Shown: one piece after another, positions 20,275 through 27,953 of the stretch
Position numbering within the stretch: the first letter of the stretch is position 1
Layout: every line of letters begins with the position of its first letter
DNA from: Candidatus Methylomirabilia bacterium
GTDB lineage: Bacteria; Methylomirabilota; Methylomirabilia; Rokubacteriales; CSP1-6
Direction of reading: 5' to 3'
DNA: 53,932 bases
Assembly: GCA_046758385.1 (NCBI GenBank)
Contig: JBHIAB010000002.1
Coordinates: 1 to 53,932 of the forward strand
Position numbers and translations under genes: made by a program
The notes under the pieces: model-generated
What the model was told of the DNA's origin: nothing
What the model saw: only the letters and a program-made list of their open reading frames with translations
Databases searched by the model: none

Positions 20275-22431
20275 TTAAAGCCCCTGCACGCGCTCCACGT
20301 TGATGACGTCCTCCACGTGGTGGATGGCCGTCATGATCTCCCTGAGCTGCGCGAGGTCCTCTACCTCCACCACGAAGCGATTCATCCCCTTGCGGTCCTC
20401 GGTAACGGTAATCTCGGCCCTTGTGATGTTTCCACGCCGCGAGGAGATGGCGCTGCTGATCTCAGCCAAGAGCCCAGGACGATCGCGCCCGATGTAGACA
20501 TCGATCTTCACCGGGCGAACCTTGGGCTCGGCCACCTCCCACTCCACCCCCACCAGCCGGTCCCGGTCCAGAACGCCCTGAGCCACGGTGGAACACTCCC
20601 TGGTGTGAACGGTGAGGCCGCGGCCGCGGGTGATGAACCCGACGATGCCATCCCCCGGAACCGGCGAGCAACACTTGGCGAAGCGAATCAAGAGGTCTTC
20701 CACGCCTCGAATCTTGACGCCCCCCTCGCTCCTCGCTGCGGGCTTGGCGGCCTTCTGAGGCCTGGCTGCTGGTACCCGCTCGGCCTCCGGCGCCTCGCTG
20801 GAGACCAACTTTCTCATCACCTGGTGGACCGAGGTCCTCCCGTAGCCGATGGAGGCCAGCAACTCGTCGACGGTTGGGAAGCCAAGATCAGCTAACGTCC
20901 TCCCCGCCTCGTCTGAGGCCAGGAGGTTGGACGGCGAGAGGCGGTGCTTCCTGGCCTCCCGCTCGAAGATCTCGCGCCCCAGGCTGAGTGAGCGGACGCG
21001 CTCCTCGCCCTTGAGCCACTGCTTGATCTTGGAGCGGGCGCGCGTGGACTTGACCACCTTGAGCCAGTCACGGCTCGGATGCTGTGTGGGAGAGGTCAGA
21101 ATCTCCACGATGTCGCCCTGCCGGAGGGTGTAGCGAAGGGGGACCAGCTTGCCGTTGACCTTGGCCCCCATGCAATGATGCCCCACCTCGGTGTGGACCG
21201 CGTAGGCGAAATCGATGGAGCACGACGCTTCGGGGAGCGCTTTCACGTCTCCCTTGGGCGTGAAGACATAGACCTCGTCCGGGAAGAGATCGAACCGGAC
21301 CGAGTCCATGAACTCCCGCGGGTCCTTCATGTCTTGCTGCCACTCCATGAGCTGGCGCAGCCAGAGGAACCCTCGGTCGAATCTGTCCTTCTCGCTCTTC
21401 CCTTCCTTGTAAAGCCAGTGGGCCGCGATCCCCTCTTCGGCCACCCGGTGCATCTCCCGCGTGCGGATCTGGATTTCTACCGGATCGCCCGTCGGCCCGA
21501 TCACCGTGGTGTGCAACGACTGATACATGTTGACCTTCGGCATGGCGATGAAGTCTTTGAAGCGCCCCGGCACCGGCTTCCAGAGCGAGTGGATCACACC
21601 CAGCGCCCCGTAGCAGTCGCGCACGGAGTTGACGATCACCCGGACCGCGGTGAGATCGTAGATCTCGTCGAACTCTCGCCCCTGGTCGTGCATCTTTTTC
21701 CAGATGGAGTAAAAGTGCTTGGGCCGCCCCTGGATCTGCGCCTCGATTCCCACCTCCCGAAGCTTCTTCCCCACGATGGCGATGACCCGGTTGATCTCCA
21801 CCTCCCGCTCCAGGCGCCGCTTGGCGACCTGTCGCTGGAGCTCCTCGTAATCCACCGGATGGAGGGCCTTCAGGGCCAAGTCTTCCAGCTCCGTCTTGAC
21901 CTGGGCCATGCCGAGGCGATGAGCAAGCGGGGCATAGATCTGGAGGGTCTCCTCGGCCACCTTCCGTGTCCTGGGCGGGGCCAAGTAGTGGAGGGTGCGC
22001 ATGTTGTGCAGACGGTCGGCCAGCTTGACCATCAGGACCCGGATATCCTGGGCCATGGCCACGAGCATCTTGCGGAAATTCTCGGCCTGCCGCTCCTCCC
22101 GGGAAGAGAAGGCAAGCTTGCCGATCTTGGTTACCCCATCGACGAGCTCGGCGATCTCGGAGCCAAACTCCCGGGTCAGGTCGTCCTTGGTCGCTTTGCT
22201 ATCCTCGATGACGTCGTGGAGGAGACCGGCAGTCACCGTCATGACGTCCATCCTGAATCTGACCAGCAGGTCGGCGACCTCCACGGGATGGGAGAGGTAC
22301 GGCTCGCCAGAGGCACGCTGCTGTCCCTGGTGAGAACGCTCGGAAAAGCGGAAGGCACGCTGGAGTATGTCCAGATCGGCGCCCGGCTGGTACTTCGGAA
22401 TCTCTTCGAGTAGAGTCTGAAGCTCTGTCAT
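20275..22431 (-). CDS. rel: long bifunctional (p)ppGpp synthetase/hydrolase (Rel/SpoT)
   Basis: Intact HD motif HDVIED, KLADRLHN, synthetase GRPKH/YQSLHT/EIQIRT, then TGS, CC zinc-finger and ACT domains. Confidence 0.97.
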   Translation of the reverse strand: MTELQTLLEEIPKYQPGADLDILQRAFRFSERSHQGQQRASGEPYLSHPVEVADLLVRFRMDVMTVTAGLLHDVIEDSKATKDDLTREFGSEIAELVDGVTKIGKLAFSSREERQAENFRKMLVAMAQDIRVLMVKLADRLHNMRTLHYLAPPRTRKVAEETLQIYAPLAHRLGMAQVKTELEDLALKALHPVDYEELQRQVAKRRLEREVEINRVIAIVGKKLREVGIEAQIQGRPKHFYSIWKKMHDQGREFDEIYDLTAVRVIVNSVRDCYGALGVIHSLWKPVPGRFKDFIAMPKVNMYQSLHTTVIGPTGDPVEIQIRTREMHRVAEEGIAAHWLYKEGKSEKDRFDRGFLWLRQLMEWQQDMKDPREFMDSVRFDLFPDEVYVFTPKGDVKALPEASCSIDFAYAVHTEVGHHCMGAKVNGKLVPLRYTLRQGDIVEILTSPTQHPSRDWLKVVKSTRARSKIKQWLKGEERVRSLSLGREIFEREARKHRLSPSNLLASDEAGRTLADLGFPTVDELLASIGYGRTSVHQVMRKLVSSEAPEAERVPAARPQKAAKPAARSEGGVKIRGVEDLLIRFAKCCSPVPGDGIVGFITRGRGLTVHTRECSTVAQGVLDRDRLVGVEWEVAEPKVRPVKIDVYIGRDRPGLLAEISSAISSRRGNITRAEITVTEDRKGMNRFVVEVEDLAQLREIMTAIHHVEDVINVERVQGL

Positions 22432-22499
22432 GGCAATCCGCCCGGTGTCCCTATTTTGCCACTAGAACGCGTTTCTGAAAAGCCGTTGCGCCGGGAAGC

Positions 22500-22676
22500 C
22501 TATTTCTTCGCCCACTTGCCATTCTCGGTCTGGATCCACTCACCAGCCCTCGCCTTGTCCCGTTGAATCTTGGCGAACGCCGCCTGGACCCGCCTGAGCT
22601 CTCCGGGCGGCATCTTGTTCTGCTCGACCAGGATTCGATAGATGGTCATGCGATCACGGTTCTCCGCGCTGATGAG
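22500..22676 (-). pseudogene. C-terminal fragment of a YdbL/DUF1318-family protein
   Basis: Translates as LISAENRDRMTIYRILVEQNK...AFAKIQRDKARAGEWIQTENGKWAKK*, like DUF1318 C-termini. An in-frame stop at 22763-22761 leaves no N-terminal half. Confidence 0.6.
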
Positions 22677-23229
22677 CCCGCGGCCGCTACCTGCGAGAGA
22701 TCCACCCGACTCTGGTGCGGATAGTACGCGGCTGAAATCGAAAGCGCCAGTGGCGGCCCCTCAGCTATCGGCGTGAGAGTCGCCTGGCCTGCCAGGTCGA
22801 CTCGGCGTCGCCCGGGCAGCCGAAGGGTCGCCCCTGCAGACAGATGCCTGATCGCGGGCAGTGCCGCAAGCCAACCCTCACCGAACGCCCGGGGATCACC
22901 CTCAGCGGCGAGGTCCACTGGTTTACCAGCGACAAGACTGTCCCCGCGACGGCTGCGATTGTGGCGCAGCGCCGAGGCTCAGCTCTTGAGGGACTCCCTG
23001 GAAACAATCAGATTCAGGGTCCTGCGAGTGGACGGCACGCTCCCTGTTTAGCGCGAAAAGGGTCTAGACAACGAAGAGTTACGCGCCAAAGCTCGCTGCG
23101 ATGCGGGTGGCGGCCCCCAAGATCTTGTGCCTGGATCACCTGTTTAGTGCATATCCGGCTGACAAGGGTGGGGTCCTCGCCTAATATTGGGGGTTAAAAG
23201 ACCTCCACGCCGCCACAAGTGGTGAGGCA

Positions 23230-24144
23230 ATGAAGCCCTTTTACGAGACACAACTCGGCAAGGCCTACCTCGGCGACGCCCTCGCGGTGACGCGGGGGTT
23301 TTGCAGCGAATCGGTCAACCTGATCGTTACCTCCCCACCGTTCCCACTGACATTCCAGAAGAAGAAGCCCTACGGCTCGGTCAAGATCGAAGAGTACGTC
23401 ACGTGGTTCCTCCCGATGGCCGACGAGTTCAAGCGGATCCTCACACGCGACGGGAGCTTTGTCATCGACATCGGCGGAGTGTGGAATAAGGGCGAGCCCA
23501 CCCGAAACCTCTACCAGTATCACCTGCTAATCGCGCTCTGCGAGAAAGTCGGCTTCCACCTCGCCCAAGACTTCTACTGGTATAATCCCGGTGCTTTGCC
23601 GGCGCCTGCCGAGTGGGTGAACGTGCGCCGCATCCGAGCCAAGTGCGCCGTCAATCTCGTGTGGTGGCTCAGCAAAACCCCCTGGCCGAAGGCCGACAAC
23701 CGGAAGGTTCTCAGAGATTACAGCGATGACATGCTCCGACTGTTAAGGCGCGGCTATCGGGTCAAGACACGTCCGAGTGGGCACAACATCACCCCGAAGT
23801 TCACCAAGAACCACGGCGGCGCCATCCCGCCCAATCTGATCGAGCTCGGAAACAACGACTCGAATGGCGGTTACCTCAAGAAGTGCCTAGCGTCCCGTCT
23901 ACCTGTCCATCCGGCACGATTCCCCCGCGGGCTACCCGAATTCTTCATAAAGCTTTGCACGGATCGCGGACACATGGTGATGGACCCGTTCGCGGGATCA
24001 AACGTGACGGGAGAAGCGGCTGAGCGACTGGATCGCCGGTGGATTGCCGTCGAACTGGTAAAGGAGTATCTCGAAGCCTCCAAGCTGCGGTTCGAAGAAC
24101 CACCACTGCTCGCCCTTATGAATCAGCGGAAGCGTAACCCTTAG
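23230..24144 (+). CDS. beta-class N4-cytosine DNA methyltransferase, M.PvuII-like
   Basis: Motif IV TSPPF at the N-terminus and motif I DPFAGS at the C-terminus. Segments FYWYNP...PAEWVN.RRIR, RPSGH, GGAIPPNL and HPARFP match M.PvuII as recalled. Confidence 0.93.
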   Translation: MKPFYETQLGKAYLGDALAVTRGFCSESVNLIVTSPPFPLTFQKKKPYGSVKIEEYVTWFLPMADEFKRILTRDGSFVIDIGGVWNKGEPTRNLYQYHLLIALCEKVGFHLAQDFYWYNPGALPAPAEWVNVRRIRAKCAVNLVWWLSKTPWPKADNRKVLRDYSDDMLRLLRRGYRVKTRPSGHNITPKFTKNHGGAIPPNLIELGNNDSNGGYLKKCLASRLPVHPARFPRGLPEFFIKLCTDRGHMVMDPFAGSNVTGEAAERLDRRWIAVELVKEYLEASKLRFEEPPLLALMNQRKRNP

Positions 24145-24153
24145 CCTTCCCGT

Positions 24154-24786
24154 TTGGAAGATTTTCAGAGATTCGTTCACAGTCTCAGCGACATCTTCAA
24201 ACAGGGTCCCGTTGACATTCGCGAGGTCTGCAAGGTCTTCGCGATCAACCGCATCCTCGGGGGCGAGCGTCTAGAATCCGTCTGTACTGAACTGAAGCTC
24301 CAGCGGCACGGCATCGAGCGGCTCAACAATGCGCTGAAGCGCCAGGAGTCGGAGAAGCTCCCGTACGTGTTCCTTGTGCTCAGCGTCCCCGAGTTGGGCG
24401 CGGGCGATGTTGCCAAGCTGGTCCCCGACGAGTACGTCTGGACGCTCGCCGTCCTCGAGGGTCGGAGGGTCATGGAGGAGGCCATCGTTGAACGGCTCCG
24501 CTCCCCGGAGCCCCTCGACCGCTTCAACCCCATCGTCGAGAAGATGCCGGAAGGGAAGTTCAGGGTCATTTCCGCCAAAAAGGCGGATAGCCTTCTACGC
24601 GCGAAGCTCTTTGAACGGGTTCAGGCACTTTCCCTCAAAGGGTTTACCAGGAGGTTCCGCAATGCCGAGGTTGACATGCATCTCTCGCTCTCGACGGAAC
24701 TGACTCCGGTCAGGACGTTCTTCGAGCTTTTGGTTCAGGAGAGCCCCCAGAAGTTCGCGGTCAGACTTTACATAGGAGATTATTGA
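24154..24786 (+). CDS. hypothetical protein, 210 aa, in frame with the methyltransferase
   Basis: Gene-like GC3 bias. Only a TTG start with no SD. Same frame as the MTase, with 9 nt between its TAG and this TTG. Confidence 0.7.
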   Translation: MEDFQRFVHSLSDIFKQGPVDIREVCKVFAINRILGGERLESVCTELKLQRHGIERLNNALKRQESEKLPYVFLVLSVPELGAGDVAKLVPDEYVWTLAVLEGRRVMEEAIVERLRSPEPLDRFNPIVEKMPEGKFRVISAKKADSLLRAKLFERVQALSLKGFTRRFRNAEVDMHLSLSTELTPVRTFFELLVQESPQKFAVRLYIGDY

Positions 24787-25503
24787 GGACAGCAGAGTTA
24801 CCAGAGTGGGGTGACATGTTTGGGGTCGGGACATCGGTCTCGCAGACGCGGGGTGAAGAAGAGCTAGTCTGGAAGCTCGTCACGCCGAACTTGCCATTGA
24901 CCAGTTGTAGAGACTGGTAACAACGCTCGATCGGCTGCTGGTGGAATCGCTCTGAGACTGAGGTGTTGTTGCAGAGGGTACCCGACAGTTGGTATCCGTG
25001 GAACAGAGCGATCCTGGAAGTAGAGCTGATGGCAGCCAGTAGCGGCGAGTGGCGAGCGTCAAGATCGGTAGGCCACAGGAAGGGGTAGCGGCGGAGGGGT
25101 TATGGCTGTGGCAGAGACGCTGTGAGTCTTTATAGATGGGAGATCTCGAGTTCTCGGGGTTGCCGTGACACGTTGCTACCGGGACCTTGAGCGGCAACGA
25201 GGTCGAGATCCTGCGGAGGCAATAGCGCAGGTAGCATATCGGGAGATGATGCTGATGGTTCGAAGGCAGTGGCCAAACTCGCCCGGCCTCCAAAAGGGGA
25301 CAGCATTGTGGAGGCGTTGTTACTTGCGTCAGGCGTGCCGGTCGAGGAAGTGCCTACAATCTCGAAACGTTATCGAAGGCCAAACGCGTCGGTTGACCTC
25401 AGTCATTCTGCTAGAGAGTTACGAGCTAAGTGAGGGAAGGCGTCATCCTGGAACTAAGTGACCTCGGGAATCTGCAAGCCTTGCCTTGAGATAGGCGACA
25501 CCG

Positions 25504-26223
25504 ATGGGAAAGCGAAGAGGTGCTCCAAGAAAGCGCAGTCAGGTCGGGCCTCGGATCGTACGGGCGTGGTTCGATACCGTCATTAATCCACTGCTTTCGT
25601 ATTTGGAGAGGGAGCAGAAGCTCGTAGCTCGCAAGAATTGGACGTGGCGCTTTAGACCCGGGGCCCTAGAGGCGATACGAGAAGTTAATGCGTACGTGGG
25701 TCCGGAGGCTCGACCTAATTTGGAGCAGTTCAACATGCTTTATCCAGATGTAAAGCGTGGCGAGGAAGAACACGATAAGAAAGTGTCGGCGCTTAGAGAC
25801 AAGTGTCGAGGACTTTACAAGACCTTGGGCACGAGCGAACTGTTGGGCGACCTCTTCCGCAGAGTGACATCCCCGGAGGCTTTAGCGAGCCTGGGCAGGG
25901 AGGTAACTGTCAAGGATTTGTTTGGGGCGTATCCTGAGTCGGATTATTTGGATCTTCTCGGGGAGTACATCATTAACAGCACGGGTGAGCTGCCGAACTA
26001 CTACACGACGGCGCCTCTTTGGAATAAGCATAAGGACGAGTTCTTAGCGATGCTAGATCGCCCTGCGATTCGAAGACGCTACCAAGAAACTGTTTCTGCG
26101 GGAAACGCGCTCTTCAGTGCGACGGATAGGCTAGTGGGATTGTTGAAGGAGCATCGACTAAGGCTTTCTCTAGAGCACGACGTGCCCTTCGTCGCAACAG
26201 GAACCGAGTCTGCCGAGCCGTAA
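25504..26223 (+). CDS. hypothetical protein, 239 aa, in AT-richer DNA
   Basis: Long ORF with ATG, basic N-terminus and helical composition. No family recognised. Confidence 0.7.
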   Translation: MGKRRGAPRKRSQVGPRIVRAWFDTVINPLLSYLEREQKLVARKNWTWRFRPGALEAIREVNAYVGPEARPNLEQFNMLYPDVKRGEEEHDKKVSALRDKCRGLYKTLGTSELLGDLFRRVTSPEALASLGREVTVKDLFGAYPESDYLDLLGEYIINSTGELPNYYTTAPLWNKHKDEFLAMLDRPAIRRRYQETVSAGNALFSATDRLVGLLKEHRLRLSLEHDVPFVATGTESAEP

Positions 26224-26237
26224 AAGACCAGAGAACA

Positions 26238-26672
26238 ATGATAGTCCCGACCACGACGAGGGCAGTGATTGACAGCGGACTTGTGTTTACGCTACTCACC
26301 TTGAACTACGTGGAAAGAGCAGCGCTACCAGGGCTGAAAGGAGCTGCGATCCTGAAGAGAGCGGTAGATGCGGAAATAGTTGAAAGCGAAAGCACGCAGC
26401 AGGAGTATTTGCTGCTATTCAGGCAGATTCGGACGCCTTTGATTACTTCCCACGTCGTTGGTGAGCTGCAGGGTCTCCAATCAAGTCGGTTGCGGTTGAG
26501 AGGTGAGGACCTTAGGTATTTTTGGTTGCACAGCCTGGAATTTCTTCTGATGAGCAATTTCGACGAAAAGTTGGTCCGGTTGCTTGACATGAATGGCAGA
26601 GAAGACATACGTGACGCGATTTACCGGTGTGGGCCGGCAGACGCTGGTCTAATTGATTTAGCGCGCTCGGAA
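26238..26672 (+). pseudogene. PIN-domain-like protein, apparently 3'-truncated
   Basis: AVIDSG, LITSHVVGEL and GPADAGLIDLARSE PIN motifs are present. The expected final LLTxD strand is absent, and the frame runs into hairpins and antisense to the acyl-CoA dehydrogenase until 26936. Confidence 0.6.
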
Positions 26673-26783
26673 CGATACGACGGGCCGCTCCGAGCGCGCA
26701 CCCACGCCTTCGGCGTGGGTGCGCGGCCCGCACAACCCGGACGGGGGGGAGGTTCGGAAGGGGGGCGGAGCCCCCCTCCGAGG
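26661..26783. repeat. composite hairpin / REP-like element
   Basis: 11-bp IR at 26661-26671/26689-26699, 14-bp stem at 26695-26708/26712-26725, then GGGGGAGGTTCGGAAGGGGGGCGGAGCCCCCCTCCGAG. Confidence 0.75.
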
Positions 26784-27953
26784 CTAATACGAGCGTGGCA
26801 GTCTCAGCACGTGCTCGGAGAGATAGTTGAGCACCATCTGCTGGGAGACCGGCGCGATCTTGTAGAGGCGGATCTCCCGCCAGAGCCGCTCCACGTAGAA
26901 TTCCTTGGCGTAGCCGAAGCCGCCGAAGGTCTGTAGCACTCTGTCACAGGCCTCGAAGCCGGCCTCCGCGGCCAGCAGCTTGGCGGTGTTGGCCTCGGGG
27001 CCGCAGGGGCGACCCTGATCGTACAGCCAGGCGGCCTTCCAGCACATCAGCTCCGCTGTCTCCAGCTTGGCCCACGCCTCAGCCAGGGGGTGAGCGATCG
27101 CCTGATTCTGTCCGATGGGTCGATCGAAGACGATGCGCTCTTTGGCGTACTGAACGCCCCGCTCCAGGGCCGCCTTGCCGATCCCCACGGCCTCGATGGC
27201 CGTCAGGATCCGCTCGGGGTTCAGCGAATCGAGGAGGTGGTAAAACCCCTCCCCAACCTGGCCCACCACGTCCTCCTCGGGAGCTTCCAGATCCTCGATG
27301 AACAGCTCGTTGGAATCCACGGCGGCCCGGCCCAGCTTCTCGATCTCTCGCACGGCGATCCGGGATCGATCGAAGTCGGTGAAGAAGAGCGTCATTCCCT
27401 TGAACGGCCGGCCTGCGGTCTCTTCGCGCGGCGTGGTGCGGGCCAAAAGCAGGATCTTGGTGGCGTGCTGAGCGTTGGTGTTCCAGACCTTGTGCCCGTT
27501 GATGATCCACCGATTCCCGCGCTTCTCGGCGCGAGTCTGAATTCGCGAGGTGTCCGTGCCCGCGTTGGGCTCGGTCACGCCGAAGGACATGACGATCTCG
27601 CCGGTGGTGATCTTCGGGAGATTCTCCTGCTTGAGGCCCTCGCTCCCGTGCTTGATCAGCGGAAGCGGGGGGAAAACGTAGAAATGAATCGGGGAGGCCC
27701 CGCTAGTCCCCGCCCCCGAGGCGCAGATCTCGTGGAGCAGGATCGAGGCTTCGGTGACACCGAGCCCGGAGCCGCCGTACTGCTCGGGCACGATGATCCC
27801 GAGCCAGCCGTTCCTGGCGAAGGCGTCGATGAACTCCTGGGGGTACTCGGCCTTCCGATCCTTGTCGAGCCAGTAGTCCAATGAGAAGGAGCGCGCCAGG
27901 GCCGCGACTTCCTTCCGAATCATCTCTTGCTGCTCGGTCAGCGCGAAGTCCAT
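26784..27953 (-). CDS. acyl-CoA dehydrogenase
   Basis: Start MDFALTE at 27953. FGVTEPNAGTD, INGHKVWNT, FDRPIGQNQ and FGGFGYAKE. Confidence 0.95.
   Translation of the reverse strand: MDFALTEQQEMIRKEVAALARSFSLDYWLDKDRKAEYPQEFIDAFARNGWLGIIVPEQYGGSGLGVTEASILLHEICASGAGTSGASPIHFYVFPPLPLIKHGSEGLKQENLPKITTGEIVMSFGVTEPNAGTDTSRIQTRAEKRGNRWIINGHKVWNTNAQHATKILLLARTTPREETAGRPFKGMTLFFTDFDRSRIAVREIEKLGRAAVDSNELFIEDLEAPEEDVVGQVGEGFYHLLDSLNPERILTAIEAVGIGKAALERGVQYAKERIVFDRPIGQNQAIAHPLAEAWAKLETAELMCWKAAWLYDQGRPCGPEANTAKLLAAEAGFEACDRVLQTFGGFGYAKEFYVERLWREIRLYKIAPVSQQMVLNYLSEHVLRLPRSY

Follow-up and report, generated by a model that had tools for sequence, protein, structure and literature searches.

In the operon of the Cfr9I restriction-modification (R-M) system, the m4C methylase gene reportedly lies upstream, and initiation at the endonuclease gene is said to be limited next to the methylase stop codon. 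Translational control of this methyltransferase (MTase)-endonuclease pair is attributed in PMC12707154 to Lubys et al. (1994, Gene 141:85). Translational coupling by re-initiation has a classical anatomy, in which a poor initiation site is located at the stop codon of the upstream gene (PMC2997769). The PvuII system comprises a divergently arranged C protein and an endonuclease of 157 aa (PMC2997769), and MTases occurring as orphans are described as widespread in PMC12707154 and PMC6471742.

In the stretch of 53,932 nucleotides analysed here (the window), an MTase gene is directly followed by a co-directional partner gene, an arrangement which differs from that of the PvuII system. The partner furthermore belongs to a family of ~326 aa proteins (hereafter X) which is unrelated to the PvuII endonuclease and carries its own N-terminal helix-turn-helix (HTH), and the PvuII endonuclease chain is absent from the PDB matches of a profile search with X. 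The MTase itself is 51% identical to M.PvuII across 291 columns (PDB 1boo; E-value: 4.9e-99), a level of identity which does not fix the recognition site, and shares with it the same beta-class motif order and a similar length. In its layout, the operon of the X family can be likened to that of Cfr9I, as an m4C methylase gene is likewise located upstream of a putative endonuclease gene, but no start-occluding hairpin was detected at the X junctions folded and the window copy has been inactivated. The locus also resembles solitary MTases, in that an intact MTase gene stands beside a deleted endonuclease gene and decay is recurrent in the family, yet it represents a recent and recognisable intermediate rather than a lineage-conserved orphan. 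We suggest that the locus is probably a horizontally acquired type II R-M operon in decay, with a core-deleted partner, a solitary MTase and a shared reading frame that has no function (Table 1).

Table 1. Features of the MTase-X locus, with positions numbered from the first letter of the window
Feature	Position	Strand	Basis
Sigma-70-like promoter match (CTGACA-17-TAATAT), upstream of the MTase gene	23159..23188	+	Consensus match only; putative function
M.PvuII-like beta-class N4-cytosine DNA methyltransferase gene, intact, 304 aa, TAG end	23230..24144	+	PF01555, 1boo match, motifs
TAG stop codon of the MTase gene, ordinary terminator	24142..24144	+	No tRNA-CUA; TAG common in genome
Pyrimidine-rich 9-nt spacer CCTTCCCGT, no Shine-Dalgarno; CCT TCC CGT, three sense codons	24145..24153	+	Sequence
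Partner (putative restriction endonuclease) gene remnant, 210 aa, TTG start	24154..24786	+	Alignments to X family
Junction of 348-nt (116-codon) in-frame deletion, ...ATC GAG CGG CTC / AAC AAT GCG...	~24320..24326	+	DNA alignment to L108
Lower-GC island with R-M remnant and two unknown ORFs	23000..26750	.	GC 0.53-0.60 vs flanks 0.63-0.65

The methyltransferase gene and its junction with the downstream frame

The MTase ORF starts with the ATG at 23230 and comprises 304 codons, and products of the same length are common to the relatives L023, L024 and L108. Its translated product matches PF01555 (123.9 bits; cut-off: 26.7; E-value: 1.2e-35), with residues 29-285 covering profile positions 1-220 of 221. 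The motifs are whole, TSPPF aligning with TSPPF of M.PvuII and DPFAGSNVTG with DIFGGSNTTG, and follow one another with the catalytic SPPF motif in the N-terminal part and the AdoMet-binding FxGxG motif in the C-terminal part. From its sequence, the enzyme is assigned to the M.PvuII subgroup of the beta-class m4C methylases. A promoter search upstream of the gene returned two overlapping matches, where 0.7 would be expected.

The initial annotation had described an M.PvuII-like MTase and a next ORF that share one frame and are separated by a single amber codon, and the sequence is exactly as quoted there, reading ...CGT AAC CCT TAG CCTTCCCGT TTG GAA GAT. The offset of 924 nt and the read-through product of 518 aa which it had given were both confirmed: the MTase ORF and the 210-aa X ORF, 9 nt apart, are in the same frame because 24154-23230 = 924 = 308 x 3, and the span from 23230 to 24786 amounts to 519 codons. 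Its statement that the downstream ORF has only a TTG start and lacks a Shine-Dalgarno (SD) sequence likewise holds. The TTG at 24154 is the sole ATG, GTG or TTG from the preceding in-frame stop up to residue 106 of the X ORF, and no SD-like 4-mer is present in the 30 nt upstream of it.

No tRNA with a CUA anticodon (amber suppressor) could be identified in the genome from which the window derives, a 92%-complete MAG, in which TAG ends 453 of the 1503 long open frames (30%). A tRNA-Sec (UCA) is present, but is irrelevant to TAG. The junction in the window is predicted to fold as poorly as shuffled sequence does (z = -1.0), and no stable structure was seen on folding the region 3′ of the MTase stop. 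A start-occluding or read-through-stimulating hairpin was rejected after eight junctions had been folded, which gave z values between -1.0 and +1.3 and revealed no hairpin that they share. A CCTCC-like pyrimidine motif before the TTG, picked out by eye in several close relatives, was also discarded, being inconsistent in the family and having no pairing partner. A scan of positions 22400-27000 against Rfam returned one sub-threshold chance match only.

The partner family and the loss of its core in the window

A search of 5.8 billion proteins identified 152 relatives of X, most of which are ~326 aa in length, while 331 members of the family were obtained from 1.84 billion representatives with a profile as query. 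Many of the X entries in the databases, namely those of 235 aa, are wrongly called, as the TTG start adjoining the MTase stop is overlooked by gene callers. Apart from a weak match to the N-terminal HTH, X has no match in Pfam, NCBIfam or PADLOC, and nothing further was found in a sequence search of the PDB (with single sequence and profile) or among the PLSDB plasmids. With 331 representative clusters and no Pfam, NCBIfam or PADLOC model, X constitutes a candidate new endonuclease family.

Structure modelling suggests that full-length X likely consists of an N-terminal HTH, a PD-(D/E)XK-like core and a C-terminal domain. The HTH takes up the N-terminal ~70 residues and is matched weakly in several members, passing the Pfam HTH_23 cut-off in P0184, while conservation across the family is highest in the C-terminal part. 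Sixteen residues (E99, E118, R124, D126, T127, D128, Y129, P138, R141, N143, K145, H147, G148, D164, Y171 and K172) are invariant in 24 full-length members. In the AF2 model of one of these proteins, P0016 (pLDDT: 86; pTM: 0.80), the invariant residues are located on a helix (79-110) and on strands 116-119, 129-132 and 138-147, followed by a helix and a further strand, and this modelled topology fits the alpha-beta-beta-beta-alpha-beta order of the PD-(D/E)XK core. The candidate catalytic layout comprises E99 on the helix, D126/D128 where strand 2 begins and N143-x-K145 within strand 3, so that the third catalytic position is occupied by N, not by D or E. A non-acidic third catalytic residue is also found in the PD-(D/E)XK nuclease MspI (D-N-x-K). 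X resembles the MspI-type nucleases in its N143-x-K145, its invariant helix Glu and its D126/D128, but differs from them in that no solved nuclease matches X significantly, be it in structure or in sequence, and the activity is as such a candidate one. When the full-length model was compared with the PDB by Foldseek, none of the matches was significant, the best local ones (Hjc resolvase, tRNA-splicing endonuclease, HincII, SwaI and BstEII) being sub-threshold with E-values of 0.2-3, and the nuclease fold is therefore taken as likely, not proven. Judging by where its gene lies, by the topology of the model and by its conserved residues, X is most probably the cognate restriction endonuclease.

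The X copy in the window begins as a family member should, with TTG 24154 falling at the conserved N-terminus. Its residues 1 to ~57 correspond to family residues 1 to ~62, and its residues ~58-210 to family residues ~172/174-326. In a pairwise DNA alignment to L108, reference position 166 is joined to 515 at window position 24319/24320, and the deletion junction is ambiguous by a few nt, with microhomology of at most ~2 nt. Missing from the window copy are family residues ~63-173, and with them the whole core and all candidate catalytic residues, while the HTH and the C-terminal domain are kept. The AF2 model of the remnant (pLDDT: 67; pTM: 0.51) falls below a pLDDT of 50 at the junction and at residues 151-177. 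The nearest full-length relatives are ~80% identical in protein sequence, a distance at which synonymous sites would be saturated, and the window copy nests beside the full-length proteins P0002, P0003 and P0122. No second X copy is present in its own genome. As judged from these alignments, the core of the putative nuclease gene has been lost by an in-frame deletion which left a solitary MTase. Since the MTase looks intact and the partner lacks its core, the system now consists of this MTase plus a remnant.

Homologous loci and the shared frame

Homologous loci were gathered from reference genomes (15) and metagenomes (80), with several further contigs being added through exact protein look-up. 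An M.PvuII-like MTase gene is located directly upstream of X, in the same orientation, in 77 loci in which both genes are readable. These derive from many phyla, with hosts including Thermoanaerobaculia, Chromatiales, Rokubacteria/Methylomirabilia, Burkholderiaceae, Vicinamibacterales, Dehalococcoidia, Nitrospirales, Caulobacteraceae, Gemmatimonadaceae and Methylocystis. Once near-identical junctions had been collapsed, 62 non-redundant junctions were retained. X is in the frame of the MTase in 12 of these, in the +1 frame in 17 and in the +2 frame in 33, and the same frame (19%) is thus rarer than the one-third expected by chance (binomial p = 0.02). The MTase genes end with TGA (30 junctions), TAG (18) or TAA (14), and in L026 and L032 a second in-frame stop immediately precedes the X start. 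The exact layout of the window (304 aa, TAG, 9 nt, TTG) recurs in L024. Spacers in the relatives with the most similar MTases measure 5 nt (L109, L049), 14 nt (L108, L068/069), 22 nt (L023, L042) and 24 nt (L037), and a spacer of 27 nt is also found among the close relatives. Among 42 curated junctions, X starts with TTG in 15, GTG in 17 and ATG in 10, and the conserved X N-terminus coincides with the start codon. An SD-like 4-mer accompanies the start in 15 of the 42 and is lacking in the other 27. The X start is positioned -14 to +35 nt from the MTase stop (42-45 curated junctions), the commonest overlaps of stop and start being ATGA or GTGA (gap: -4) and TGATG or TAATG (gap: -1).

Among the options raised by the initial annotation was programmed read-through of the amber codon, by which a little of the 518-aa MTase-X fusion would be made and the partner thereby rationed. 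The shared frame, with a single TAG and three sense codons between the ORFs, the weak X start without an SD and the identical layout of L024 are all consistent with this proposal. However, a shared frame, which that annotation had itself regarded as a one-in-three coincidence and as suggestive only, is rarer among the homologues than chance would have it, and the closest MTase relatives, with spacers of 5, 14 and 22 nt, are out of frame. All three stop codons are in use, two loci interpose a second one, and the conserved X N-terminus falls on a start codon in the homologues. The genome lacks a suppressor tRNA and closes 30% of its long frames with TAG, database searches revealed no fused protein, no stable structure follows the stop, and the nuclease core that could be rationed is gone from the window partner. 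The other option was that a nonsense mutation had split an ancestral single-chain MTase-nuclease fusion (type IIC-like). That R-M enzymes occur in fused form, together with the one frame and the one stop between the ORFs, speaks for such an origin. Against it, none of the 77 loci has both parts as one ORF, and homologues are always two genes. A search for fusions, restricted to proteins of 351-1116 aa so that the 326-aa single proteins were left out, yielded P0121 as its sole match. In this 384-aa protein, MTase residues 1-93 are joined to X residues ~45-326, which marks it as a deletion chimera and not as a full-length or ancestral fusion. The longest protein among the best 150 of the 331 family members is 488 aa in length, and an MTase domain is absent from the three longest of these 150. 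Searches of two very large collections of proteins yielded none of the full-length fused homologues that the initial annotation had suggested looking for. With no full-length fusion, varied frames and no suppressor tRNA, neither programmed read-through nor an ancestral fusion is therefore supported, the former being very improbable and the latter exceedingly so, and the locus is refuted as a recoding candidate. A false lead, which would have amounted to an unusual rationing of a toxic nuclease, is thereby removed.

Re-initiation, which the initial annotation had also listed, agrees with the layout of the family as read from its sequences, in which the MTase stop and the X start are overlapping or at most 35 nt apart, TTG or GTG serves as the start in 32 of 42 junctions and an SD-like 4-mer precedes the start in only 15 of the 42. 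The coupling anatomy is present in the window as well, with a gap of 9 nt, a TTG start and no SD, and it is from this anatomy only that we infer coupling between MTase and X. The homologues are indeed separate genes in varying frames, an outcome which the initial annotation had named as refuting its proposal, although the SD of their own that it had coupled with this is lacking in most of them. Its notion of a toxic nuclease partner is plausible for the X family, but does not extend to the window copy, from which the nuclease core has been lost. Overall, the interpretation given in the initial annotation is partly supported.

Under the preferred reading of an R-M operon in decay, the ancestral operon would have consisted of the MTase gene and, directly after it, a gene encoding the partner of ~326 aa, which is most probably the cognate restriction endonuclease. 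The partner gene would have had a weak TTG or GTG start without an SD, overlapping or closely following the MTase stop, and with such a weak start at this position the partner was probably made at a low level. It was probably translated only by ribosomes that had just finished the MTase (termination-reinitiation coupling), so that the nuclease would stay scarce and would depend on the MTase having been synthesised first. The 348-nt in-frame deletion has removed the partner core, leaving restriction dead and the MTase solitary. No fusion protein would be expected beyond background read-through, and the frame shared across the TAG would follow from the spacer being 9 nt long, without having a function.

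Decay of the operon and its genomic setting

The same MTase-TAG-9 nt-TTG-X allele is found in two other assemblies. One of these, L105, is another deposited MAG, which is 99.9% identical over 3421 nt and differs by three SNPs (25046, 26053 and 26064) that lie outside both genes. The other, the single-run Logan assembly L106, is 100% identical over 2539 nt. A different in-frame core deletion is present in P0082, which is nested among full-length genes of another clade. This deletion spares the N-terminal start as well as the C-terminal 155 aa, and its 3′ boundary is no more than one codon away from that in the window. Other copies are frameshifted or have lost 31-51 aa (L006, L049, L055, L061, L068/069 and L092), while genomes of the same taxonomic family hold only scraps of X (L021, L022). 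Comparison of these copies indicates that X has decayed repeatedly and independently within its family.

As the window derives from a MAG of 354 contigs, the deletion and/or the TAG could be an artefact of assembly, with the real locus harboring a full-length partner. However, an identical sequence was assembled independently in the single-run Logan assembly and is also present in another MAG, and the own genome lacks a second X copy able to cause a collapse. From the matching assemblies we conclude that the window allele is no assembly accident, and an artefact is highly unlikely. The deletion being real, its product might still have been maintained: the 210-aa remnant, composed of the HTH and the C-terminal domain, would then be a functional protein made by re-initiation after the MTase, and could serve as a DNA-binding regulator of the MTase operon or as a dominant-negative or anti-restriction partner. 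In keeping with this, the in-frame deletion leaves the ORF intact in three assemblies, the C-terminal part is the most conserved in the family, the N-terminal HTH passes the HTH_23 cut-off in P0184, and P0082 has independently kept the same N- and C-terminal parts with a 3′ boundary one codon apart. The three assemblies are, however, nearly identical and therefore uninformative on selection. Only two such cases are known among the copies collected, the other decayed copies being frameshifted or deleted elsewhere, and ORF-based searches see precisely the in-frame survivors. The remnant is furthermore modelled by AF2 with poor confidence in comparison with the full-length protein. Maintenance of the remnant is as such unlikely, although two independent in-frame deletions which keep the same parts leave a small chance that remnants are kept for a DNA-binding role. 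A broader scheme, in which X would be an undescribed type II endonuclease family whose HTH acts as a fused C-protein-like controller, whose synthesis is gated by re-initiation and whose remnants are retained for DNA binding, regulation or protection, is similarly speculative and rather improbable. The state of the window copy is that of ordinary R-M decay, an orphan-methylase intermediate, and the locus provides a clear example of the R-M life cycle, from acquisition in a low-GC island through deletion of the endonuclease to a surviving MTase.

In L024, the locus which shares the exact layout of the window, a SIR2-STAND gene follows X, and no remnant of such a gene was matched by tblastn in the gap at 24787-25503 of the window. 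The lower-GC island has rel/spoT on one side and an acyl-CoA dehydrogenase gene on the other. Among 61 related genomes, only five contain X or its remnants, a distribution which fits horizontal acquisition.

Deletions and decay in the X family

The putative restriction endonuclease X has lost its core by in-frame deletion both in the window and in the family member P0082 (see table below). These are independent events in separate clades, with 3′ boundaries lying no more than one codon apart, just before the ..NNAL/RNALRRQ.. motif. This near-identity may reflect chance, a domain boundary at which the product survives selection, or a recombination-prone spot. Further remains of X are found in two genomes of the window's own taxonomic family, G014 (locus L021) and G020 (locus L022), where the gene is reduced to scraps of about 55-70 amino acids, one of them with an internal stop, accompanied in L022 by a 28 amino acid scrap of the methylase. 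These scraps represent the same decay at later stages, in related genomes.

In the chimeric protein P0121, X residues ~45-326 are joined behind methylase residues 1-93, the product of a deletion that took out the last two-thirds of the methylase gene along with the 5′ end of X. As the methylase is destroyed while the candidate nuclease core of X is intact, this state should be lethal to the host, unless the N-terminal HTH is needed for activity or another methylase provides protection.

Coordinates of the features discussed
Feature	Position	Description
X core deletion junction	window 24320-24326	in-frame
P0082 (X with core deletion)	L107:2501-3085	in-frame deletion
P0121 chimera gene	L016:4001-5155, also L031	in-frame join of methylase and X parts
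X genes with upstream TTG start	L108:2228-3208; L109:2731-3708	
Stretch after X remnant	window 24787-25503	717 nt
ORF	window 25504-26223	239 aa; co-directional with next ORF, same low-GC island
ORF	window 26238-26936	232 aa; co-directional with preceding ORF, same low-GC island
SIR2_2 and nSTAND-NTPase protein gene	L024:5017-7551	844 aa; directly 3′ of MTase-X pair

Start and stop codons

Many database forms of X, including P0023, P0053, P0059, P0068 and others, are 235 amino acids long. As seen at L108 and L109, the frame stays open upstream as far as a TTG that coincides with the conserved N-terminus and lies 5-14 nt past the methylase stop. These entries are mis-called, a later ATG having been picked by gene callers.

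A tRNA-Sec (anticodon UCA) was detected by Aragorn in the whole genome to which the window belongs, and the organism therefore probably uses selenocysteine. This tRNA is irrelevant to the TAG codon at the methylase end.

Neighbourhood of the methylase-X pair

GC skew is unusually strong along the stretch that follows the X remnant, at +0.24 to +0.30. This stretch contains no convincing ORF, matches nothing in Rfam and does not resemble the SIR2-STAND gene found 3′ of X in L024. The two ORFs that follow were unmatched in Pfam, NCBIfam and PADLOC. In L024, a close relative, the methylase-X pair is intact and directly followed by the SIR2_2 and nSTAND-NTPase gene; the restriction-modification pair therefore travels in defence islands.
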